Positions 6,789-17,947 of a DNA stretch of 20,000 nt are shown here, piece after piece. The notes beneath the pieces are model-generated. The model had not been told where the DNA came from, searched no databases, and saw nothing but the letters and a program-made list of their open reading frames with translations. The DNA is taken from the IMG/VR virus record IMGVR_UViG_3300018878_000143; one strand, given 5' to 3'. This stretch comes from an uncultured virus (IMG/VR IMGVR_UViG_3300018878_000143) (lineage: Duplodnaviria > Heunggongvirae > Uroviricota > Caudoviricetes). Each line of letters begins with the position of its first letter. The stretch's first letter is position 1. The position numbers were made by a program, and so were the translations under genes.

Positions 6789-6875
6789 TGGCGGGAGAGA
6801 CGCGACTCGAACGCGCACAAGATCTCTCTTGGATGGATTAGCAATCCATTCCGCTACCAATTACGGCACTCCCCC
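6789..6875 (-). tRNA. tRNA-Ser(GCT)
   Basis: acceptor GGGGGAG/CTCTCCC, anticodon arm ATGGA-TT-GCT-AA-TCCAT, long variable arm, TTCGAGT T-loop, discriminator G, encoded CCA. Confidence 0.95.
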
Positions 6876-6880
6876 TCGTT

Positions 6881-6982
6881 GCCGGTCTCTTCCCGGCTGT
6901 CAAGACCTGTTTTCATGGTCTCCGTATCTATAGATACGAGCAGTTGGAAAAGGATTCTATGAAACGCCAAAAGCTTTGGCAT
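6881..6982 (-). ncRNA. structured inter-tRNA RNA, possibly skipping-rope-like phage sRNA
   Basis: 5' hairpin, unpaired UUUCAUAGAAUCCUUUUC tract, two hairpins, terminal GACAGCCGGGAAGAGACCGGC motif; fills the Gly-Ser spacer. Confidence 0.5.
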
Positions 6983-7059
6983 TGGAGCACGCGACGGGGA
7001 TCGAACCCGCAACCCTCTGCTTGGAAGGCAGATGCTCTAGCCGATTGAACTACGCGTGC
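6983..7059 (-). tRNA. tRNA-Gly(TCC)
   Basis: acceptor GCACGCG/CGCGTGC, anticodon arm TCTGC-CT-TCC-AA-GCAGA, TTCGATC T-loop, discriminator T, CCA. Confidence 0.95.
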
Positions 7060-7225
7060 ATAGTTGTGACGAGCTCTCTGACGAATTAGTAACCAAGCTC
7101 AATTTTTCATGCAAAACTACATAGTGACCACAGTGATGACAGCTGCACATATTGTCATCACTGTAGACCTCTATATCTATGTCGCAAATAGGACAGTATC
7201 CAAACTTAAGTTCCATGCGATTCAC
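7037..7225 (-). CDS. small zinc-ribbon protein
   Basis: CPIC...CHHCG; start overlaps upstream stop (GTGA); stop lies inside tRNA-Gly. Confidence 0.6.
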   Translation of the reverse strand: MNRMELKFGYCPICDIDIEVYSDDNMCSCHHCGHYVVLHEKLSLVTNSSESSSQLCTRSSIG

Positions 7226-7467
7226 CCCAACACATGGCTGTGTTCATCAAAGAAGTTCAGGAATTTACCCTCATCTTCCTTATGCTCGCAGTAAATTTCA
7301 AGTTCGTCGCCGTGTTCTCCCAACAATGCTCCAAGTGCTATGTATCTACTGATATGGCTTTTCAAGCAGAATTTATCGCCATACTGGCTGGTCAGATATA
7401 CTTCTCCGGTGCAACTTTCTACAGTCGCTAAAAAGTCATTAACATCACTGATATTCCTAAGCTTCAT
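7222..7467 (-). CDS. HPr-like small protein
   Basis: 81 aa; DVNDFLATVESCTGEVYLTS..GDKFCLKS...ELEIYC pattern fits the HPr fold, with Ser46-equivalent LKS and no His15 motif; GAGGTG RBS. Confidence 0.6.
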   Translation of the reverse strand: MKLRNISDVNDFLATVESCTGEVYLTSQYGDKFCLKSHISRYIALGALLGEHGDELEIYCEHKEDEGKFLNFFDEHSHVLG

Positions 7468-7949
7468 GTATTCACCTCTTCTTTGCCGTTGTTCTTCAGC
7501 GCTTCCATCAATGCTATTTCTGCCTCTTCTCTGATAGGAAATACTATTTTACCGAAATCATCAAATTCGATATCACGCTGTCGATCTATTATTTTACCGT
7601 TTCTTACTTCGCAGATCCTGAATTTCTTTGTCCATTTACCTTTGGAATTGCAAGAAATTGATATGCTGCGAACGGCATATTCTACGATCTCTTTTTCATA
7701 ATGATATGTCCAAGTTTCCTTATCATCCAAGTGCCAAACATCATCGACTCTCCAGACTGTGTCACCAACTTTGCACGGCGGTGTGATAATCATGTTTGTT
7801 CCGCCGACAAGGTAGTAATAAATGCCAAGAGCTTCATCTCCTTGAATTTTCTTCAACATAGTCATATCATGCTTGTCTGCTCTGGATGCTATCAATGTAG
7901 GAATATCCGTTGAGCAATTATCATATGTGATAATCAGTTCGTCTTCCAT
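7464..7949 (-). CDS. hypothetical phage protein
   Basis: likely ATG 7949 after GAGG; common phage motifs PCKVGDTVW and FGKIVFPIREEAE. Confidence 0.85.
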   Translation of the reverse strand: MEDELIITYDNCSTDIPTLIASRADKHDMTMLKKIQGDEALGIYYYLVGGTNMIITPPCKVGDTVWRVDDVWHLDDKETWTYHYEKEIVEYAVRSISISCNSKGKWTKKFRICEVRNGKIIDRQRDIEFDDFGKIVFPIREEAEIALMEALKNNGKEEVNT

Positions 7950-7984
7950 GTCGCTCAACCTCGCCAAACTCTATTTTTATATTG

Positions 7985-8215
7985 TTAAATAACACCATCT
8001 TTAGCAGCACATACGAATCTATATGTAAAATCAATATGATCATCATCTACAAATACCAACGGTATGGCATCGCCCTTCATAACCTTGACCGCTTCATCTA
8101 TGCCGCCATATGGTTTAAGCTTGCTTAATGCGTGTGCATAATCGCAAGTGTTGTCGCACTCTTCTGTATACGAATGTCCATATCTATTTAAGCACTCAAA
8201 ACACGGATTATACAT
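7985..8215 (-). CDS. hypothetical Cys-containing protein
   Basis: ATG 8215 after AAAGGTG; NPCFEC...CDNTCDY. Confidence 0.75.
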   Translation of the reverse strand: MYNPCFECLNRYGHSYTEECDNTCDYAHALSKLKPYGGIDEAVKVMKGDAIPLVFVDDDHIDFTYRFVCAAKDGVI

Positions 8216-8241
8216 ATTTTTCACCTTTTAAAAGTTTGTTT

Positions 8242-8439
8242 TTAATGCTTGACTATGCTTTTCCAAGCAACTACTTCATCACAATCGTCATAATCACAAT
8301 AGCACCACTTATATACACCATTCCACATAGGTACCAGCTTGTTGATATAGATTCTTTCTTCACCGTTATAAATAACCTTTAACTCAACATCCTCATTAAC
8401 TGGTGGAGTTTTTTCGTACAACTTAATCCAAACACTCAT
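8242..8439 (-). CDS. DUF551-like small phage protein
   Basis: WIKLYEKTPP N-terminus and VVAWKS C-terminus; GAGGT RBS. Confidence 0.7.
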   Translation of the reverse strand: MSVWIKLYEKTPPVNEDVELKVIYNGEERIYINKLVPMWNGVYKWCYCDYDDCDEVVAWKSIVKH

Positions 8440-8466
8440 GTCTTACCTCATAAAATTCGTATTTCA

Positions 8467-8751
8467 TCAATGGATACTGTCTAACTCATAAAAATGCCAA
8501 ACATAACCAAGTGCGTCTTGTGCAGTTTTAAAATAGAACGATCCATCCATAACTTCTGATGGAACTTCCCATCCGGTACCAACAGATATCAACTCTGTCG
8601 TCGTTTCAGGGCAATCATCTCTTGTCTCAATCCAACACATTAGGTCGTGCCCTTGAAGTTGAACATCAAGCAATCTGTGTCTACGGCAAGTAATCCTAGT
8701 AACTTCTCCATTTCCATTTACAGGATATTTAAAAATTCTCGTCGTGCTCAT
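8467..8751 (-). CDS. conserved phage hypothetical protein (94 aa)
   Basis: IFKYP...LDVQLQ...GTGW...YVWHFYE pattern; GGAGGA RBS. Confidence 0.85.
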   Translation of the reverse strand: MSTTRIFKYPVNGNGEVTRITCRRHRLLDVQLQGHDLMCWIETRDDCPETTTELISVGTGWEVPSEVMDGSFYFKTAQDALGYVWHFYELDSIH

Positions 8752-8785
8752 AATAATCCTCCAAATAAAATACGCTTTTCATATT

Positions 8786-8986
8786 TTAGAACAACTTGTG
8801 CCACAAAGCCCTAAGTGTTTTCTTCCATTTTCCATTGACAAATTCAAATCCGTCAATGTACACCTTATTGTTAATAACCGTGCAACTATAACCACCTGAC
8901 GGACAAGGTGGCAGCTTAACACCGTTTACTATCACTTCGCCGTTTGAAACTACCGTTCCGTTATTGATCACAACATTGTTGCTCAT
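8786..8986 (-). CDS. hypothetical protein (66 aa)
   Basis: ORF track; GAGAGGT RBS. Confidence 0.75.
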   Translation of the reverse strand: MSNNVVINNGTVVSNGEVIVNGVKLPPCPSGGYSCTVINNKVYIDGFEFVNGKWKKTLRALWHKLF

Positions 8987-9150
8987 ATCTCTACCTCTCT
9001 TTTAAGGCGGCTGTTGCACCTGCGCTCGGCATCGTCACCGCTATTCGGTACCAGTACAGGTACTGATCCCTATAAGGCTTATCCTTGTTCGCAACATTTA
9101 AAAAGCACTGCAGCAAGCATTGTACCTAGCTGACTGGCGACTCACTTTCC

Positions 9151-9239
9151 TGGCGGGAGGAGTGGGATTCGAACCCACGGTGGTGTTACCCATCACCGGT
9201 TTTCAAGACCGGCCCCTTAAACCACTCAGGCACCCTCCC
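9151..9239 (-). tRNA. tRNA-Ser(TGA)
   Basis: acceptor GGGAGGG/TCCTCCC, anticodon arm CCGGT-CT-TGA-AA-ACCGG, long variable arm, TTCGAAT, G73, CCA. Confidence 0.95.
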
Positions 9240-9411
9240 ATATTTATAATGTCCTTTGCGTTCTTGCGCCGGTCAAGAGGACGGACAAACCCCTCAGACT
9301 TTTAAGGGAGCGGCACTTCCAGACCGCTAACGACTTTCCGGGCTTCACTCACCTTGTGCACAGGTAGTATGATTTATTTAGCTCATACTCGCATATCCCT
9401 TCACCCTTATA

Positions 9412-9488
9412 TGGTGATCCATCTGAGATTCGAACTCAGGACACCAAGATTAAAAATCTTGTGCAACTGCCAACTGTGCTAATGGATC
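9412..9488 (-). tRNA. tRNA-Lys(TTT)
   Basis: acceptor GATCCAT/ATGGATC, anticodon arm CAAGA-TT-TTT-AA-TCTTG, TTCGAAT, CCA. Confidence 0.93.
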
Positions 9489-9567
9489 ATTTAGGTGAGG
9501 GGGCAAGACAATTGAGCCCCCTCTTTCTTGTTTCAAGGGAGGTACAAGAATAAACCTTAATCCCTTG

Positions 9568-9653
9568 TGGTGCCGGTGACCGGACTCGAACCGGTACGCT
9601 GTTGTCAGCAAGGGATTTTAAGTCCCTTTTGTCTACCATTCCATCACACCGGC
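9568..9653 (-). tRNA. tRNA-Leu(TAA)
   Basis: acceptor GCCGGTG/CACCGGC, anticodon arm AGGGA-CT-TAA-AA-TCCCT, variable arm, A73, CCA. Confidence 0.95.
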
Positions 9654-9656
9654 ATA

Positions 9657-9741
9657 TGGTGGCGGTTACGAGACTTGAACTCGTATGGATTTCTCCACTG
9701 GAACCTAAATCCAGCGTGTCTGCCAATTCCACCAAACCGCC
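9657..9741 (-). tRNA. tRNA-Leu(TAG)
   Basis: acceptor GGCGGTT/AACCGCC, anticodon arm CTGGA-TT-TAG-GT-TCCAG, TTCAAGT, A73, CCA. Confidence 0.95.
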
Positions 9742-10298: not shown

Positions 10299-10760
10299 TC
10301 ACTGTATTTCATCAAACAGCTTTGCCGTATTGAGAAGAATTCTCTTAATCTGATCGTCGTAGCCAAATCTTGAAGCATTGACCGCAATTGACTTCAGTAA
10401 ATTGCCATCGTGCTGCCGTTCGGTTGCCGCCTTCCAATCACAAAACATTTCGACAATATCGATCAAGTTCATATCAAGCACGCCATTATCGAAATGTTCA
10501 GGATGGTGACGACTCTGAGCATAATGATGACTAAGTGCCGGCTTCATTGCATCAAGATGTTCCTTATATTCTGGAGAGTCATACACACAGGATGCAAGTG
10601 CCGGTGTGTGCTCTGCAAAAATCTCAACTTCTGGAGTTTCCAGCTTTACGCGATCATGATTGACACCTCTTGTTGTCAGTTTGTCTGTAAAGAAACGAAT
10701 ATAGTGCCTCACGCGTTCAATATGCTTCTGAGTTTCCACCTGACATTCTGCAATTGTCAT
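10299..10760 (-). CDS. DUF5662-like HD-domain protein
   Basis: H...HD.VKL...HHY..SRHHPEHF...MNLIDIVEMFCDW motif; likely ATG 10760 after AAAGGGGTG. Confidence 0.75.
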   Translation of the reverse strand: MTIAECQVETQKHIERVRHYIRFFTDKLTTRGVNHDRVKLETPEVEIFAEHTPALASCVYDSPEYKEHLDAMKPALSHHYAQSRHHPEHFDNGVLDMNLIDIVEMFCDWKAATERQHDGNLLKSIAVNASRFGYDDQIKRILLNTAKLFDEIQ

Positions 10761-10788
10761 ATTGCTCACCCCTTTCATAAATCATTAT

Positions 10789-12054
10789 TTACCCAAAACT
10801 AACATCCTGTTTATCCGTTCTTAGCGACACAAAAACAGGGAACTGTAAACTACAGCACCCCGTCGATTTGTCATAAGACTGTTCTTTATATTTAATTTCC
10901 ACAAGGCTACCAACCAATTCATCTTGGTGTGTCCAAATCCAAGACCTCTGCTCGTCTGTGAAGCCAGACCCAACTCCAACCTCATTTCCCTTGTAGTCAA
11001 CTATAATTGCCCCAAGTGTATTGGCAAGCTTTCCACTCCCAGACTCACATCTTAATATCGGTAGATCCATTGTGTAGAATTGTTTGACTTTAAGAATACC
11101 GCGATGTCTTTTGCACTGGTAGGGGACATCTAGATTTATCATTAATCCCTCTTTATCTTCAGACACCATTTTCTCCAACAATTTCGGAACAATGCTTTGG
11201 TCGTCACCGCTATATAAGGAATTAAGAATGTGTATATGGTCATTTCCAGTAAACCACTCTTGTAAATCATCAAGCTGTTGTCGGCGCTCTTTGTATGTAG
11301 CTACGCTTTCACCTGTATCAAACTCGTCCGCAGGAAGCATGTCAAAAATTGTGAAGCAAATCACCGTTTTATCATCATTTTCAGAGTTCACAATTCCCGT
11401 GGTTAAGCGAAAAGCCTCATTGTCAGAAAGAGTGCCCTTGTTGGCCAAGGTCAGCTCTCCATCAAAAACCAGATGTGGGAAGTGGCTAAGCTCATCTGTA
11501 ATGTGTTCAAGACCATCGAACGCAATACCGCTTCTGCCGATCAGCTCCCCACGATAAAAGGTGGCGCGGACACCGTTTAGCTTTTGCGAAACAGAAAACC
11601 AACATCCATCTTTTAGTGGATACTTCTCGATTGGATAAGCTTGCTGGACTTCCCATTCCGGGATCAGCCCAGGGATAACTTTATTGATACTTTTAGCGGT
11701 GATGCCGAGCCGAAGCGTTTTAGCCAACAGTTTGATATATAGTTCTTGCGTACCAGCATTCTGAGTTCGCAAAAACGAGCAAACTCTAAACGTTGTTTCG
11801 TCGTCAAGCGCTTTTCTTTTTGACAGCTCATTGCACACATCAAAAATATCTCTATACTGGTGGGTATGCCATGCCGCAGGTATCAGTCGTCTCAGAGTTG
11901 CCTCCGACACTTTATACGAAAGCCTTGGATTACAAGCATAATACAGCAATCTTGTGAAATGCTCATTGTCGCGATTTTCTTCAACAATAGCAAGCTTTCT
12001 TTTCATTCCTGTGGTTTGTTGCAATTCGATCAGAGCCAAGATAGCTTTATCCAA
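10789..12054 (-). CDS. lig: ATP-dependent DNA ligase
   Basis: motif I QKLNGVR, III FDGEL, IIIa IFDML, IV EGLMI, V LKVK, OB-fold VGSGFTD, VI FPVF..LRTDK; likely TTG start at 12054 after GGAGGTGG (ORF track extends to 12072). Confidence 0.93.
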   Translation of the reverse strand: MDKAILALIELQQTTGMKRKLAIVEENRDNEHFTRLLYYACNPRLSYKVSEATLRRLIPAAWHTHQYRDIFDVCNELSKRKALDDETTFRVCSFLRTQNAGTQELYIKLLAKTLRLGITAKSINKVIPGLIPEWEVQQAYPIEKYPLKDGCWFSVSQKLNGVRATFYRGELIGRSGIAFDGLEHITDELSHFPHLVFDGELTLANKGTLSDNEAFRLTTGIVNSENDDKTVICFTIFDMLPADEFDTGESVATYKERRQQLDDLQEWFTGNDHIHILNSLYSGDDQSIVPKLLEKMVSEDKEGLMINLDVPYQCKRHRGILKVKQFYTMDLPILRCESGSGKLANTLGAIIVDYKGNEVGVGSGFTDEQRSWIWTHQDELVGSLVEIKYKEQSYDKSTGCCSLQFPVFVSLRTDKQDVSFG

Positions 12055-12148
12055 ATGCTCCACCTCCACCATATCCGCCAGAATTGTAGGCGATAAATAC
12101 CGCTATGCTGGCGGCCATGATAAACCCGACAGAAATTACTTCTCCCAT
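12047..12148 (-). CDS. putative 33-aa single-pass membrane peptide
   Basis: GGAG RBS; MGEVISVGFIMAASIAVFIAYNSGGYGGGGAFG; overlaps nadE stop and ligase start. Confidence 0.55.
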   Translation of the reverse strand: MGEVISVGFIMAASIAVFIAYNSGGYGGGGAFG

Positions 12149-12891
12149 GCGACATCTCCAAAGGCGGGCATCGGTCTAAGTTTATGTAGATTTTTTTGAT
12201 GTAGGTTCTCTATAATGCGTTCATTTTTCTCAATGGCGCAAACACCACTTTCGATATAGCGGTCAATTTCTTGATAACTTACGCCAAGATTATCTTCATC
12301 TGTTTTCCCGCACAGTCCATCAGATGGAGTCTTATCAACAAGATCCCTTGGGATTGGCAGCTCGTGACCAATTTGGATAACCTCGTGTACCATCAGGTTG
12401 GCCAGCGGACTAAAGTCACCAACGCTGTCGCCAAACTTCGTAGAGTAGCCAACGAAATCCTCAGATCTGTTGCATGTGTTAGCAACGCGTCCACCACCCG
12501 GTAGAGATTGTGCCACCGCATACAATGCAGCCATCCTAAGACGCGGTGGAAGGTTGACCTTGCTCTGCTCACTGATTCCATCTGGCAAAGCGCGATCAAT
12601 TCTATCAATCATATCACGGTAAGCTCCGTAGATGTTGATTATAACATCGTTAATGCCAAGAGCCTCCACCAGACGAGCGGAGTCAGTAATGTCGCGCTGC
12701 TCACCATTTGGCATCAGGACTCCAAAAACCCTATCTGCACCGAGCGCTTCAACACACAGAGCGGCTACGATACTGCTATCTTTACCGCCGGAAATCCCGA
12801 CGACCGCATAGCAGCCTTTCCCGTTTTCTTCAAAATAGTTACGAATCCACTGGACGATTTCGTCCTTTGTTCTCTTTGGATCAGCGAGCAT
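12136..12891 (-). CDS. nadE: NH3-dependent NAD+ synthetase
   Basis: PP-loop GISGGKDS, N...RLRM, TCNRSE..VGYSTKFGD, KTPSDGL....DEDNLG..Y, HK; single domain without glutaminase. Confidence 0.95.
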   Translation of the reverse strand: MLADPKRTKDEIVQWIRNYFEENGKGCYAVVGISGGKDSSIVAALCVEALGADRVFGVLMPNGEQRDITDSARLVEALGINDVIINIYGAYRDMIDRIDRALPDGISEQSKVNLPPRLRMAALYAVAQSLPGGGRVANTCNRSEDFVGYSTKFGDSVGDFSPLANLMVHEVIQIGHELPIPRDLVDKTPSDGLCGKTDEDNLGVSYQEIDRYIESGVCAIEKNERIIENLHQKNLHKLRPMPAFGDVAWEK

Positions 12892-13306
12892 GTACAACCC
12901 TCTCTTTCAAATCGGTTTGAGATTCGACTTCATTCAAAAATCGAATGAGCAAATCATAAACCTCTCTCAAACCAGCTCGGTCGTCAAGAAAGAGGTTGTA
13001 GTACACTTTCCTGCCACCAAACTGGGTGATAATGTCCTCGTTAATACTGTCGTATGGAATATCATTTTCCTCAAGATAGGAGGCGATCCCGGCCTCTTTT
13101 TCTTTGGAACACGATGTAAATACGATAAAGCTTGCATACGGTCTCAACCTTCTTAGCAAGTTAATAACATCTTCATAGCTTTCTCCGCGATTATGATAAT
13201 CAAAGACAGTATCATCAAAGTCATAAGCAATGATGAGCTTACCATGTGCGGCAAACTCATCAATTAAACGCTTATATGCATTTTGAGTATCTAAAAAATA
13301 GTCCAT
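12881..13306 (-). CDS. small capless HAD-superfamily protein (putative phosphatase)
   Basis: motif I IIAYDFDDT, motif II FTS, K, motif IV FLDDR; overlaps both neighbours. Confidence 0.8.
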   Translation of the reverse strand: MDYFLDTQNAYKRLIDEFAAHGKLIIAYDFDDTVFDYHNRGESYEDVINLLRRLRPYASFIVFTSCSKEKEAGIASYLEENDIPYDSINEDIITQFGGRKVYYNLFLDDRAGLREVYDLLIRFLNEVESQTDLKERVVHAR

Positions 13307-14793
13307 CAGAAATTCCCCTCGTGCAAATTCTGGCGGACCTCACTCAGCGTAAACCGTTTGGTAAAGACACCATTTTCAAAAACTGTACCCAGTTCATTGT
13401 TTTCCTGTGCCTCCGCCCAAGTAAGACCGTCTTCATATGCATAACCATCTCCGGTCTTATACACACGACAACAACCTCGCTGAGACTTTTTGAAACGACC
13501 AGAATCGGTCTTTGGGTTTTTGAAAATCATAATAGGATTGCCGCACTCGTCTTCCGCATATGTTGCCTTAACCGCAATACCAAACGTATCTCTGGTGAAC
13601 GGATTGTAGACTACATCATCCTTCCAAATAGTCTCCAGACACTGCATGGAGAACGAGCCTACTCCCAAGGAAACATTATTGATTGCAAAACCGTTTTCTT
13701 CCAGAATCTCATAGATACGACGGCAACGCTGAGGCGTGATGCTGTCGCCATAAATCGCCTTTACATGTGGATTGAGAACCTTAAATCCCTTGGCATTTAC
13801 TGTTCCGCCGAAAGTGTCCCACAGCTTAAACACCGTCTGTGTAACAACCTCCACAGGATCGCCGCTGTCACCACGGATAGAGATAAAGCCATCATGTGCC
13901 AAAACTTCTTCCTTAAGCTGTGGCAAGATATTGTCTACCAGATTCCAGTAATCATAACTGTCGCTGACCATGGAAAAACTCTGGTGCGGATAAATCTCGG
14001 TAAGGAGCCGACGGACATGTGTGATTTCATCGCCATCAATCGCAAAGTTGGAACACATTACGCTGTGTTCAGTAGAAAGTGCGCCAAATGCGACGGGCTC
14101 TTTTTCACAGTCGCAATCATAATTTCTTTCCAACCAAAGAATTGCCGGAACAGTTGCTGTATTCAAAAAGCTGAGGCAGAATGCAGCAGAACTCTTAGTT
14201 GCGCTCTCAACGCTCTCTTGTCCTCGCATAGAAAAATCGCCAAGAAGTCTTGCACGAGAGACATTGTCGTCGCACGTTCTCTCTGCAAACTCATTGACGA
14301 TCTGGCGGTAGCGGTATCCGACTTCTGCAGACACCTGGGTATGCCACATTGTACAAGAAAGCATTGTTTCGATGGAATTTACCAGCCACACAAAGTCTGG
14401 ATGTGTATTTGAAATTTCAATCTGTGGCACCTTGATGTCAGACCTTGTCCCCTCGGGAAGTGCTCTAATCTTCAGGGGTAAATACCCAAGATTATAGAGC
14501 TCTTCGATGCGTTGTTCGCCGACACCGTCTGTACCAATAGTGGATCTGAGAACGCGCTTATAATCATTAAGAACATTTTCCAAACTTTTATCGAAAAACC
14601 ATCGACCAAAAGCCTTAATTAAATATTCTCCAATGAATGCCTGAAGCCCAAACATTGTGATCTTCTGAGTGTCCTGCAGACGAGACATACGAGGGGTGTA
14701 GTAAGAAACCATTTTGGTCAAACCTTTTGGGTACTGATCAGCGTGTGCCGTCTTGTAAAAATCAAGACACAACAATGGGTTATAATCTATCAT
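13306..14793 (-). CDS. nadV: NAMPT/NadV-family phosphoribosyltransferase (Namat-like; substrate possibly nicotinate)
   Basis: DFYK.AH..QYP, PEGT, DFSMRG, phospho-His TEHS, SMVSDSYD, IRGDSGDP, IYGDSIT, GVGS, RDTFGIAVKAT, K.PKTD...KKS.RG; GGAGG RBS. Confidence 0.9.
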   Translation of the reverse strand: MIDYNPLLCLDFYKTAHADQYPKGLTKMVSYYTPRMSRLQDTQKITMFGLQAFIGEYLIKAFGRWFFDKSLENVLNDYKRVLRSTIGTDGVGEQRIEELYNLGYLPLKIRALPEGTRSDIKVPQIEISNTHPDFVWLVNSIETMLSCTMWHTQVSAEVGYRYRQIVNEFAERTCDDNVSRARLLGDFSMRGQESVESATKSSAAFCLSFLNTATVPAILWLERNYDCDCEKEPVAFGALSTEHSVMCSNFAIDGDEITHVRRLLTEIYPHQSFSMVSDSYDYWNLVDNILPQLKEEVLAHDGFISIRGDSGDPVEVVTQTVFKLWDTFGGTVNAKGFKVLNPHVKAIYGDSITPQRCRRIYEILEENGFAINNVSLGVGSFSMQCLETIWKDDVVYNPFTRDTFGIAVKATYAEDECGNPIMIFKNPKTDSGRFKKSQRGCCRVYKTGDGYAYEDGLTWAEAQENNELGTVFENGVFTKRFTLSEVRQNLHEGNF

Positions 14794-14809
14794 TCTTTTA
14801 TTCCTCCAA

Positions 14810-15598
14810 TTACAGCACAGTTATCTTTTTGTGGCAACCACGATAAATGCTGTCTGTAGTATAAATATGCTCGATAAGGTCACTGCTAAGCAGCTCTCCG
14901 TTGAAGATTGTATTCTCACAGTGAGTAATGTACAGGAACACTTTTCCTGCGCCCGCTTCTTTCAAAGCCTTAGCAGTATGCATAAATGTACCGCCACGAG
15001 AACAAATGTCATCGACGATAAGAACAGTTCTTCCACGAACCTTATCTGCTCCAACCAATTCAAACTTCTGGATATTGCCGGTGCGCCAGTCTCGGTGTTT
15101 AATGCCAAACACATATTCTCCCTTGATCTGGTCAGAATACTTCTTTGTTGCCCCTTCATCTGGGTAGCAGAACAAGACTTCGTCCTTGTTCGCCCCAATG
15201 AGATTAATGGTAGCTCTTACATTCGCCCCAACACCCTTAATGTCAACTCTGTCGATTAGTGCAGCGCTTACATTAGAATGAGGGTCTTCGACAAAGACTT
15301 TTGTGAAGTTGAGGGCATTAATAAACTCTGCAAACCACTTCAGTGTAAACACCTCGTCGCACGCCTTGACTCTGTCCATTCTTGCATTTGGAATGTAGGG
15401 CAAGAATAAAAAGATACAAGTTTCGGGATCATTGGCACGAATATGATGAACCAAATGCCAAATAATGATACATTCGTGATCCCCGTCAAACTTCCATTCA
15501 ATAATGTTTTTACCACTTCCATAGTTTTCGCATCTCATAGACGAAGTGCCATCAGGGAACTGCGTACAATTGACAATACAACCATTGACTGTAATCAT
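14810..15598 (-). CDS. prs: ribose-phosphate pyrophosphokinase-like protein (Adps-like)
   Basis: FPDG, LPYIPNARMDR, DPHS, PDEGA, K.RDWRTGNI, PRPP-binding VDDICSRGGTF, YITH, TTDS; short (262 aa). Confidence 0.88.
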   Translation of the reverse strand: MITVNGCIVNCTQFPDGTSSMRCENYGSGKNIIEWKFDGDHECIIIWHLVHHIRANDPETCIFLFLPYIPNARMDRVKACDEVFTLKWFAEFINALNFTKVFVEDPHSNVSAALIDRVDIKGVGANVRATINLIGANKDEVLFCYPDEGATKKYSDQIKGEYVFGIKHRDWRTGNIQKFELVGADKVRGRTVLIVDDICSRGGTFMHTAKALKEAGAGKVFLYITHCENTIFNGELLSSDLIEHIYTTDSIYRGCHKKITVL

Positions 15599-15601
15599 AC
15601 C

Positions 15602-16147
15602 TTATGCTCCTTCGATATTGATTTGGCACATTTTCATTGCCTCTAATGCATTCTTATGGCTTTCCGGAGTAACACCGGCACAGCAAGATGCATCAACAGT
15701 GATCTTCACTTCGGGCATGAACGCCTTGATAAGCATAGCGTTGGAGATAACACAGATATCGGTACACAGACCAACAAGGACTACCTCGTCAACTTTTTCC
15801 TTTCTATCGATCTGAGTCAGCCAGTCAGCCAATTCAACAGAGCCGAATGTAGGTTTAAGAAAAACCTCGGATCTTACTCCGCCCTGGACTCTTTTATCCA
15901 ACGCTTCGAATACAGGCGCCGCCAACATCCATCCCTCGGTGTCTTCGATACAATGAATCACAGGCAGGTTCTCCCCCTCCTGCGTATCGATATAGTTTGA
16001 ATGATGTGTGTCATGCGTTACTGCAAAAATTCCATCAAAAGTATTGATCTTCTCGACAACCTTGGGAACGATTGCAACGGCATCCGCTGTGCCCAATGCT
16101 CCATCCACAAAGTCGTTTTGCATATCAACAACAACAAGGATTTTCAT
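15602..16147 (-). CDS. pncA: nicotinamidase/pyrazinamidase (isochorismatase family)
   Basis: VVDMQNDF, metal ligands DTH and HC, catalytic K and GLCTDICV; located in NAD module. Confidence 0.88.
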   Translation of the reverse strand: MKILVVVDMQNDFVDGALGTADAVAIVPKVVEKINTFDGIFAVTHDTHHSNYIDTQEGENLPVIHCIEDTEGWMLAAPVFEALDKRVQGGVRSEVFLKPTFGSVELADWLTQIDRKEKVDEVVLVGLCTDICVISNAMLIKAFMPEVKITVDASCCAGVTPESHKNALEAMKMCQINIEGA

Positions 16148-16173
16148 ATGTACATACCACCTTAATTAAATAT

Positions 16174-16485
16174 TTATTTTGAGTTGTAATGAGTCCACAC
16201 ATAATCTACAAATGCATCCCAACAATTCATTACTTGCCAGTACACATCTACCTTCTTTGGCTTGTTAATCTGGCTTCCGCACCATGGTGCAATAATAGTT
16301 TCCCATTCGCACTTACTCCAGAAGTAATATAGCAAGGACGACTCTAATTTTATGGCAAAGTCATATTTGTTCTTGCACTTCTTGTGCGCATCCTCAATAT
16401 CCTTAAAAAATCCACTGTGCTCAAAGATGTTAAAAACCTCTATTGAATCTTTATTGGGATCATGGTAGAACACATTCCATTTCAC
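16174..16485 (-). CDS. hypothetical phage protein
   Basis: likely GTG start overlapping upstream TAG (TAGTG); YYFWSKCEWE...KVDVYWQV motif. Confidence 0.8.
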   Translation of the reverse strand: MKWNVFYHDPNKDSIEVFNIFEHSGFFKDIEDAHKKCKNKYDFAIKLESSLLYYFWSKCEWETIIAPWCGSQINKPKKVDVYWQVMNCWDAFVDYVWTHYNSK

Positions 16486-16739
16486 TATGATGCTTCCTTC
16501 TTCCTTGCATTTTTGATTTCGCTCAAAAACATTTCCGCCGGCCAACAATCGGCCCCGTTGTTGATTTCTATGTACACAATTTCTTCTTCGTCATCAACAA
16601 TATGTCCTGCAGCGATATGAGAAACACCAGACCATGCGAACCATACTTTATCGCCCTTTTGTACCTGATTAGCAGGAACCACAAGTTCCTTTTTATTGCG
16701 CTCTACAAGTACCGGAATTTCGTACCATTCACTTCTCAT
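16485..16739 (-). CDS. hypothetical protein (84 aa)
   Basis: ORF track; AGGGGGA RBS. Confidence 0.75.
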   Translation of the reverse strand: MRSEWYEIPVLVERNKKELVVPANQVQKGDKVWFAWSGVSHIAAGHIVDDEEEIVYIEINNGADCWPAEMFLSEIKNARKKEAS

Positions 16740-16765
16740 AACATCCCCCTAATTTGCTCATCAAA

Positions 16766-17041
16766 CTAACCTTTCATATTCACTTTTTGGTAGCACGCTT
16801 CACAAATATTCTTTGCAATGCAAGCGTTACCAACACCGCCGCGCAGTTCTGCGCTGTTGCTCTCCACAAATATCCCGTGTTCATTTGTGGTTACCTTTGG
16901 ATAAATAATTTTTCCACACCACTCACAAACAAACGACCCTTTAACATAGGTTTCAACAAACAGTTGTGCCGCATTTTCCGTCGCTTCTTCAAGCGTAATA
17001 TCTCCCCAAAAGTACGGTGCCAAAGCATCTGTGATATTCAT
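16766..17041 (-). CDS. small zinc-ribbon protein
   Basis: CEWCG...CEAC; GGAGG RBS. Confidence 0.75.
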   Translation of the reverse strand: MNITDALAPYFWGDITLEEATENAAQLFVETYVKGSFVCEWCGKIIYPKVTTNEHGIFVESNSAELRGGVGNACIAKNICEACYQKVNMKG

Positions 17042-17065
17042 TAGGGCAGACCTCCAATTTCTACA

Positions 17066-17317
17066 TTACTCTGGTATGCATATCGTATATATGGTCTGAT
17101 CTTCATCTATGCTTCCCGTAGAGAACTCATATATTTGGTGGAAGTCTTTTATCTCGCTCACTGCACTCGCATCAATCCCTGAAACTTTTGGAAAAACAAT
17201 ATTGGCCTCTACTTCTCTACCGTCATATATGAGTTTGCATCCAGTAAACTCTATTTTAGATGTACAATCATCATTCTGAGTAATGATTACCTTTTTACAA
17301 CCGCCAATGAAATGCAA
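17066..17317 (-). CDS. hypothetical protein
   Basis: likely TTG start 17317 after AGGAGTG (ORF track 17066-17398). Confidence 0.7.
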   Translation of the reverse strand: MHFIGGCKKVIITQNDDCTSKIEFTGCKLIYDGREVEANIVFPKVSGIDASAVSEIKDFHQIYEFSTGSIDEDQTIYTICIPE

Positions 17318-17328
17318 ACCGTTCACTC

Positions 17329-17916
17329 CTATTTGATAATAATCTCGTCTCTGCCATCTGTACACAGGATACGGAATGGACGCTGGACACCGCAACAATA
17401 TTGTTCAGCTGCCTCTAATGCTTTGAGGATCTTTTCCTCCGGCGGCATGTCCAAATCCTTTGTAGTGAGAAGACTTCCCATTGCAACTTTTTCGCCACAC
17501 CCTACTGCGCAAATTCCAAGCTCCGGCTCAAGTACTGAATAGTCGCCCTGTACTTCAAATACCTTGCCGGGGGTTGCCACAATAAAATTTCCGCCACGGT
17601 CTTTTTCGCCCTCATGTACCACACCATCTTTGAACAAAGCTATTACTCTGGGAATAAATTTAGTAACCATAAATCTATGGTCAATTTCCGTCTTTTTAAG
17701 TAAATCAACCTCATCGAATAAACTGTCTGAGTACTTTAGCAAATCCAAATGTCTGAACGTCGTCGTTCCGCCAATCAGAACGTTGTCGAACGTGTTGTTT
17801 CTAAATACTTTAGATGGCATCTCGACAGCTTTTGTGTATCCATTGCTACCAAGGCTGTCTCCGCCAATCCATGAAACTCCATTTTTTCGATCCGCAAATC
17901 CTATAATACAGGTCAA
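17329..17916 (-). CDS. HslV/proteasome beta-like N-terminal threonine (Ntn) hydrolase
   Basis: TTG start after GGAGTG gives MTCIIG..; GGDS, conserved K (PSKVF), AVGCG in place of AIGSG, ALEAA. Confidence 0.75.
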   Translation of the reverse strand: MTCIIGFADRKNGVSWIGGDSLGSNGYTKAVEMPSKVFRNNTFDNVLIGGTTTFRHLDLLKYSDSLFDEVDLLKKTEIDHRFMVTKFIPRVIALFKDGVVHEGEKDRGGNFIVATPGKVFEVQGDYSVLEPELGICAVGCGEKVAMGSLLTTKDLDMPPEEKILKALEAAEQYCCGVQRPFRILCTDGRDEIIIK

Positions 17917-17947
17917 ACATTTCACTCCAATTCTTTATATATCTGTA

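Follow-up and report, generated by a model that had tools for sequence, protein, structure and literature searches.

Why would a phage carry an enzyme of the nicotinamide phosphoribosyltransferase (NAMPT) family that has lost the aspartate with which such enzymes bind nicotinamide, and why is its gene flanked by genes for a nicotinamidase (pncA) and an NAD+ synthetase (nadE)? The question arises from a 20,000-nucleotide stretch of DNA (the window), bases 11549-31548 (minus strand) of the IMG/VR record IMGVR_UViG_3300018878_000143, an uncultured member of Caudoviricetes whose record has 104,404 bases and an estimated completeness of 88%. Five open reading frames (ORFs) follow one another head to tail on the minus strand of the window, at 16147-15602, 15598-14810, 14793-13306, 13306-12881 and 12897-12136, with intergenic gaps of 3 nt and 16 nt and with overlaps at the final two junctions. 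We propose, with a probability of roughly 0.6, that this five-gene gut-phage operon is a nicotinate-routed version of NARP1, a known phage pathway of NAD+ reconstitution, in which deamido-NAD (NaAD) would be formed from nicotinate and ADP-ribose pyrophosphate (ADPR-PP).

Among bacterial defences against phages, NAD+ depletion is a major one; the known countermeasures on the phage side are NARP1 to NARP3. In the proposed route, the host defence would split NAD+ into ADP-ribose and nicotinamide, PncA would deamidate the nicotinamide to nicotinate, and an Adps-like enzyme would pyrophosphorylate the ADP-ribose to ADPR-PP. The Namat-like enzyme, whose base pocket lacks the Asp that accepts the amide hydrogen and has Ser240 instead of Ala, would then combine nicotinate and ADPR-PP into NaAD, which NadE would amidate to NAD+. 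With nicotinate as the product of PncA and NaAD as the substrate of NadE, a pair of the Adps/Namat type would fill the sole gap between them; formation of NaAD from nicotinate and ADPR-PP is the most economical mechanism for this step.

The enzyme with the altered pocket is encoded by the third ORF (13306..14793, minus strand; 495 aa). Its scores against PF04095 (78.2 bits, cut-off 20.8) and PF18127 (32.1 bits, cut-off 25) place it in the NAMPT/NadV/Namat family, and it matches phrog_448 with an E-value of 1e-154. In sequence searches the E-values were 7e-117 for Namat, 2.8e-94 for HdNadV and about 1e-43 for mammalian NAMPT. The AlphaFold model (predicted local distance difference test score, pLDDT, 94.1; predicted template modelling score, pTM, 0.92) gave the same order in Foldseek, with Namat as the best match at a template modelling (TM) score of 0.91, HdNadV (9ke8) at 0.87 and mammalian NAMPT at 0.85; this structural check bears out the placement in the NAMPT/Namat clade made in the initial annotation of the locus. 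Namat is also the closest characterised relative (46% identity to the SPbetaL1 protein, 219 of 473 aligned residues), and here, too, an Adps-like gene is adjacent, 16 nt upstream. The product of this ORF is a Namat-like enzyme of the NAMPT fold rather than a plain NAMPT. It exceeds the cut-off of the NCBIfam model NF006629, nicotinate phosphoribosyltransferase (447.6 vs 405 bits), a name that implies chemistry with nicotinate and phosphoribosyl pyrophosphate (PRPP). Because matches at Namat level in Bacillus phages share this name, a product name of this kind cannot tell nicotinate enzymes from nicotinamide enzymes.

The initial annotation had read the segments LGDFSMRG and FCLSFLNTATVPA within 14140-14245, with Ala213 at the position of Asp219 and Gly185 at that of His191 in human NAMPT, and had taken the enzyme for a nicotinate-using member of its clade. 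Translation gives both segments as described, at residues 184-191 and 205-217, with the Ala213 codon (GCA) at 14157-14155 and the Gly185 codon at 14241-14239 (minus strand). The equivalence to the two human residues was set by spacing only, as Phe193 to Asp219 in the human enzyme and Phe187 to Ala213 here both span 26 residues (human residue list from PMC3665594). For Namat the correspondence comes from alignment: HMMER set SFLNTATVPA opposite SFTGTDTIPA of the crystallised Namat from phage SPbetaL1 (chains 9w5x/9w5w) without a gap (E 7e-117), and a global alignment with SPbetaL1 Namat paired Asp215 with Ala213, Ala242 with Ser240 (codon 14074..14076, minus strand) and His245 with His243 (codon 14065..14067, minus strand). 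Both alignments agree with the claim of an Ala at the Asp215/Asp219 site. No acidic residue is aligned there, although a distant acidic side chain could still reach the pocket. His243 corresponds to the catalytic (phospho-)histidine and is invariant in the family alignment; the motif TEHS, which had been reported as kept, is indeed present at residues 241-244 (within STEHS, 240-244), but it lies outside the interval in which it had been placed. Among 200 close relatives (59-98% identity), NTA and GDF are invariant in all 200, so the reading of the Ala213 region does not reflect chance.

When the ligand-contact and catalytic sites of Namat (22 sites, listed in PMC12774641) were compared, 18 were identical in the window's enzyme, the changes being D215A, A242S, A362S and Y394M. 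The ribose and phosphate contacts, most adenine contacts and the catalytic His243 are kept, and the nicotinamide contacts that differ are Asp215 and Ala242, here Ala213 and Ser240, with the other base contacts unchanged. The Asp215/Ala242 pair that characterises Namat is thus absent. The published structures of Namat show a hydrogen bond from Asp215 to nicotinamide, with Ala242 in the wall of that pocket, and the 8.1-fold drop in NAD+ formation seen with D215A is evidence that the lost residue is important (PMC12774641). Asp219 has been described as defining the substrate specificity of human NAMPT (PMC7096376), and its D219S mutant is listed as a substrate-affinity switch (PMC4919578). From the altered pocket and its neighbours we infer that nicotinate is the base that is used.

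If the pocket decides between nicotinamide and nicotinate, its state should be reflected in the gene neighbourhood, and the initial annotation had regarded the flanking pncA and nadE as independent support. Loci around relatives of the enzyme were fetched from IMG/VR and from prokaryote contigs representing one genome per species; ORFs were called in six frames and searched with profiles that had been built iteratively, starting from the five proteins of the operon in the window. After identical sequences had been removed, the 559 fetched loci and the window yielded 441 unique enzymes, for which neighbours were counted within 6 kb. The 218 enzymes without the Asp were accompanied by pncA in 202 cases, by nadE in 209 and by a prs-like gene in 206, and only three of their loci lacked both pncA and nadE. 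For the 164 of them with at least 5 kb of flank on both sides, the counts were 161, 159 and 162, respectively. Among the 223 Asp-type enzymes, a prs-like gene was found beside 211, whereas pncA and nadE were found beside none. A search of the first 80 Asp-type loci with filters switched off gave best E-values of 6.3 for pncA and 0.12 for nadE; the later loci were searched at E 1e-3 only. The loss of Asp therefore does co-vary with pncA and nadE, as had been expected. The four genes are co-directional and remain linked across at least four gene orders.

The pocket residues are equally sharply divided. The site of residue 213 holds Ala or Ser in all 218 Asp-less enzymes and Asp or Glu in the 223 others; the site of residue 240 holds Ser in 218/218 of the former and Ala in 223/223 of the latter. 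The replacement of His by Gly at residue 185, which had been thought to be part of the switch, did not behave in this way. The site is mostly His in Asp-type enzymes (184, with Gly in 38 and a gap in one) and Gly in the Asp-less ones (207, with Ser in 9 and Cys in 2); with 38 of 223 Asp-type enzymes also carrying Gly, it is not diagnostic; what does track the switch is the replacement of Ala242 by Ser240. Both computational checks, the pocket alignment and the neighbourhood survey, support a nicotinate-using member of the clade, and the use of nicotinate itself is best described as predicted.

Several points weigh against this reading, and they are given here together with the alternatives on which they bear. 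The first concerns the history of the linkage. A tree was built from 100 rows, comprising 71 cluster representatives (65% identity) and 29 context-free representatives, with the trait columns removed; it is unrooted, and 5 of the 441 enzymes had been dropped as fragments. The Asp state changes once on this tree, on a branch with a Shimodaira-Hasegawa-like approximate likelihood ratio test (SH-aLRT) support of 98%. Because of this single change, the covariation represents one old split kept by descent, albeit across deep divergence, and not repeated co-evolution, and independent contrasts are not applicable. Thus, the linkage is as strict as the initial annotation implied, but pocket and neighbours do not constitute independent events. 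The direction of the change was probably a loss of Asp, since NAMPT and NadV have it.

The second point concerns the base. The D219A mutant of human NAMPT is listed as a loss of activity (PMC4919578), and the D215A mutant of Namat, with its 8.1-fold lower NAD+ formation, still retains roughly one eighth of the nicotinamide activity (PMC12774641). With one mutant inactive and the other partly active, Ala alone is no proof of a switch to nicotinate. In addition, the titles of PDB entries 6ta0 and 6ta2 report crystals of human NAMPT, an enzyme with the Asp, in the presence of nicotinic acid and PRPP and of nicotinate mononucleotide (NaMN), which shows that an Asp-containing enzyme can bind both nicotinic acid and NaMN. 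One alternative is that the enzyme continues to use nicotinamide as Namat does, with Ser240 or a water molecule binding the amide while pncA and nadE serve a parallel salvage through host PncB and NadD. In its favour, D215A Namat is measurably active and the remaining site is conserved. We consider it quite unlikely: the nicotinamidase encoded alongside would draw on the very substrate that the enzyme needs, the Ala/Ser213 and Ser240 pair is fixed in 218/218 enzymes, with no enzyme combining a residue of this pair with one of the Asp/Ala pair, and the absence of pncA and nadE from all 223 Asp-type loci would be odd for an independent add-on.

The third point concerns the donor. The clamp helix of Namat follows the consensus G-S-X-phi-X-phi-X-phi-T-R-D, with aromatics at X positions 3 and 7 (PMC12774641). 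The window's enzyme departs from it, having GSFSMQ, an excess of 13 residues and then YNPFTRD, and its donor could differ. The insertion (residues 384-395, between GSFSM and YNPFTRD; 13609..13644, minus strand) is a gap in the alignments with Namat; AlphaFold modelled it within a beta-hairpin, 385-398, with a pLDDT of about 85, and its length varies among relatives. In the Asp-less clade (n=218), GSF was found in 205 enzymes and P[FY]TRD, with an aromatic directly before TRD, also in 205. Some family representatives (e.g. P0160, P0195 and P0200) have an intein-like sequence directly after the GS of the clamp motif, and many (P0127, P0150, P0160, P0191 and others) have lengths of 540-1114 aa, their matches to the query being divided into 2-5 stretches. 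Moreover, Namat itself accepts PRPP in vitro and converts it with nicotinamide to nicotinamide mononucleotide (NMN) roughly half as fast as human NAMPT does (PMC12774641).

These observations would suit a shortcut of the Preiss-Handler pathway, in which the enzyme acts as an analogue of nicotinate phosphoribosyltransferase (NAPRT) and makes NaMN from nicotinate and PRPP, the Prs-like protein supplies the PRPP, host NadD makes NaAD, and the phage NadE finishes. The pncA and nadE genes suit this route equally well, and NadD is generally essential in bacteria and would hence be available to it. We nevertheless regard it as possible but unlikely, owing in part to the residues that contact adenine: Arg38, Phe381, Tyr396, Thr400 and Asp402 of the adenine clamp are kept, Arg38 being the equivalent of the stacking Arg40 in the clamp loop of Namat, and the PRxSR motif occurs in 207 of the 218 Asp-less enzymes.

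The Prs-like protein itself, a PRPS-fold enzyme (PRPS, PRPP synthetase) of 262 aa encoded by the second ORF (14810..15598, minus strand), also argues against a PRPP supply. It is 40% identical to the proven Adps of SPbetaL1 over 255 residues (E 3e-53; phrog_619, E 1.4e-69), whereas cellular PRPS structures were matched with an E-value of 1e-13 only. All 11 curated PRPS models scored below their cut-offs, TIGR01251 being the best (93.3 vs 113 bits) and the other ten falling far below. The PP loop of PRPS has the form DDxxDTxGT; the window's protein reads DDICSRGGT and SPbetaL1 Adps DDLSSFGGT, and Lys167 in KHR aligns with KQR. A remodelled PP loop, loss of alpha11-alpha12 at the C-terminus and a conserved catalytic Lys have been given as traits of Adps (PMC13586617). 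The protein is closer to Adps than to PRPS and shares with Adps the PP loop, the short length and the Lys, the residue numbering of the ICP1 protein having been compared from text only.

The main argument on the donor came from a sister grade. Some Asp-less representatives of the family lack the clamp insertion; an earlier profile scan for such enzymes had given mainly Asp-type loci and two loci with KTA only, and a genome scan with an alignment of the insertion-free Asp-less representatives then defined the sister grade as 58 loci (L560-L617, not deduplicated). They are located on contigs, mostly of metagenome-assembled genomes (MAGs), from Sphingobacterium, Clostridia, Oscillospiraceae, Desulfovibrionaceae and members of the Candidate Phyla Radiation (CPR; Saccharibacteria and Nomurabacteria). 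The Asp is absent from all 58 and Ser240 is present in 57, and where the adenine region is present it shows the canonical Namat motif, e.g. YTYQYVTRD, in agreement with the clamp consensus. Their neighbours are the same, with pncA beside 49, nadE beside 48 and a prs-like gene beside 50 of the 58. A candidate for a universal carboxylate donor, Asn/Lys211, was rejected on the same material: this site is Asn or Lys in 216 of the 218 enzymes of the window's clade, but Val, Gly, Ala, Ser or Ile in the sister grade. Because insertion-free enzymes have the same neighbours, the pncA/nadE linkage goes with the base pocket and not with the insertion. That these enzymes, among the same neighbours, have the adenine motif of Namat unaltered speaks against a PRPP route; an intact adenine clamp there makes ADPR-PP the probable donor. 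The Namat-like character of the window's enzyme and its Adps partner point the same way, to ADPR-PP as the likely donor and deamido-NAD as the likely product.

The two routes also differ in their need for an adenylyltransferase. Neither a CTP_transf_like nor a NUDIX domain was found in the window's record, and no NAPRT of the PncB type was seen beside the cluster. In the absence of a CTP_transf_like adenylyltransferase from the record, the four enzymes could by themselves close the path from the breakdown products of NAD+ back to NAD+. Among 43 related phage records from different clusters, 35 had no CTP_transf_like gene (12 of 15 among those at least 90% complete), which speaks against the PRPP route; the remaining 8 of the 43 did have one and count on the other side, against a self-contained path. 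Of the CTP_transf_like genes adjacent to the cluster, the three examined best matched NadR-, NadM- and heptose/glycerol-type models and not NadD, all non-generic matches being below their cut-offs. Two of the loci have a NadR-like or NadM-like gene just downstream of the nicotinate-type cluster (L034:10811-11938 and L291:8240-8827), likewise below curated cut-offs, which suggests that NAD+ salvage modules may be stacked there. The missing adenylyltransferase fits a pathway without adenylylation of NaMN, and host NadD could still serve.

The proposed route further depends on the two enzymes at its ends, and the initial annotation was right in recognising both. The first gene of the operon (15602..16147, minus strand; 181 aa) encodes a nicotinamidase-like protein (Pfam Isochorismatase, E 1.8e-21), whose best solved relative is the pyrazinamidase/nicotinamidase of P. 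horikoshii (1ilw/1im5, E 4e-12). In the alignment with this structure, Asp8, Lys98 and Cys132 are kept, and so are Asp46, His48 and His65. We take these to be the catalytic triad and the metal site, as in 1im5. Against the NCBIfam PncA model NF008623 the protein scored 30.8 bits, below the cut-off of 174, and by its sequence it is predicted to be a divergent viral form of nicotinamidase (phrog_19305). The last gene (12136..12897, minus strand; 253 aa) is a NAD_synthase match and encodes a single-domain NAD+ synthetase (PF02540, E 2.5e-51; TIGR00552, 176.3 bits vs a cut-off of 63.65) with SGGKDS at residues 36-41 and no glutaminase domain.

Between the Namat-like gene and nadE lies an accessory gene (12881..13306, minus strand; 141 aa) for a small HAD-like hydrolase, with DFDDT at residue 29 and a match to phrog_1238 (E 6e-21). 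A Pfam search with this protein gave no match, and in the Atlas it falls among viral HAD-like clusters. The PHROGs label of its family is 'phosphoheptose isomerase', a poor fit to the HAD motif. Relatives of this protein were found beside 11 of the 218 Asp-less and 51 of the 223 Asp-type enzymes; as they adjoin both types, it appears to be a recurrent companion of NARP1.

Even if the chemistry is as proposed, its purpose might be another. The enzyme could use a different pyridine or base, or the genes could form an ordinary auxiliary metabolic set with a role outside counter-defence, e.g. housekeeping recycling of ADP-ribose. The same four genes occur on contigs of many bacterial genomes, mostly MAGs, so that the module need not be phage-specific. 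A different base is unlikely, as PncA and NadE bracket exactly one missing step; housekeeping and counter-defence share the same chemistry, and this part of the alternative concerns the role and not the mechanism. We see little probability in it as a whole and favour a putative role in counter-defence for the nicotinate-routed operon.

The surroundings of the operon offered a few further observations. Directly downstream of nadE lies a gene for an ATP-dependent DNA ligase (10789-12072, minus strand); being ATP-dependent, the phage ligase draws no NAD+. Six tRNA genes (Ser-GCT, Gly-TCC, Ser-TGA, Lys-TTT, Leu-TAA and Leu-TAG) form two groups at 6789-9741 (minus strand), and an ORF at 17329-17925 (minus strand) gave a hit to the PHROG 'peptidase HslV family' (E 6e-17). 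For most other ORFs of the window there was either no family match or a match to families of unknown function alone. Scanned for promoters and terminators, the region 10500-17200 showed no more sites than shuffled sequence. No match was obtained when the operon was compared by megablast with 50,697 phage records, or when IMG/VR was searched with the single protein P0143. At the protein level, an unannotated faecal phage (60%) comes closest among the records of the cultured collection, and Asp-type Namats come next at about 44%.

Should the proposal be correct, it would add a new activity to NAD biochemistry, the direct synthesis of deamido-NAD from ADPR-PP, and would provide a natural two-residue specificity switch from Asp to Ala and from Ala to Ser. 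It would also explain why a nicotinamidase and NadE are tied to the Adps/Namat pair in hundreds of gut phages and bacteria, and genes now labelled NAMPT, NAPRT and PRPP synthetase would have their annotation corrected. The trapping of diffusible nicotinamide as charged nicotinate, together with an ATP-driven final step, could make the recovery of NAD+ irreversible under NADase attack. A nicotinate-using Namat or a NARP1 extended by pncA and nadE was not found in the literature covered, which included the main texts of the NARP3 paper and the Nezha preprint; in the text of the NARP1 preprint, nicotinic acid, nicotinate, PncA, NadE, nicotinamidase and deamido are not mentioned.

Among the known systems, NARP1 of Bacillus phage SPbetaL1 and Vibrio phage ICP1 (bioRxiv 10.1101/2024.02.11.579819; PMC12774641; PMC13586617) is similar in that an Adps-type gene adjoins a Namat-type gene, and the operon described here differs from it by Ala for Asp215, Ser for Ala242, the clamp insertion and the addition of pncA and nadE. 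NARP1-AP (bioRxiv 10.64898/2026.01.28.702374) is likewise a NARP1 operon with accessory enzymes, and in the window a hydrolase gene is placed between the Namat-like gene and nadE; however, the accessory enzyme of NARP1-AP is Adpp, a Macro-domain ADPR-1''-phosphate phosphatase, instead of a HAD-like protein. Human NAMPT, whose Asp219 mutants go back to Khan et al. 2006 (as cited in PMC7096376 and PMC4919578), has the same fold (TM 0.85) and the same position in question, but uses PRPP and nicotinamide, and unlike in its D219A mutant, the Ala is here natural, conserved and paired with Ser240. NARP2 (NadV and NMNAT) and NARP3 (PnuC and NadR; PMC13464706) also represent phage-encoded restoration of NAD+, but they proceed via NMN and need an adenylyltransferase, of which the window's record has none. 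Clusters of pncB, nadD and nadE have been reported in jumbo phages by a survey that, in the passages covered, counts NAMPT genes with no separate class for the Asp-less type (PMC11662467). With the Preiss-Handler pathway (PncA, PncB, NadD and NadE) the operon shares a start at nicotinamidase and an end at NadE acting on NaAD, whereas the Adps/Namat-type pair in its middle would skip NaMN. On balance we lean slightly towards a putative nicotinate ADP-ribose transferase (nicotinate + ADPR-PP -> deamido-NAD + pyrophosphate), whose reaction would be new to the literature. Joined by PncA, Adps and NadE, it would make up a fourth, self-contained way of reconstituting NAD+, common among large gut phages and present as an operon also in Clostridia, Sphingobacterium, Desulfovibrionaceae and CPR assemblies.

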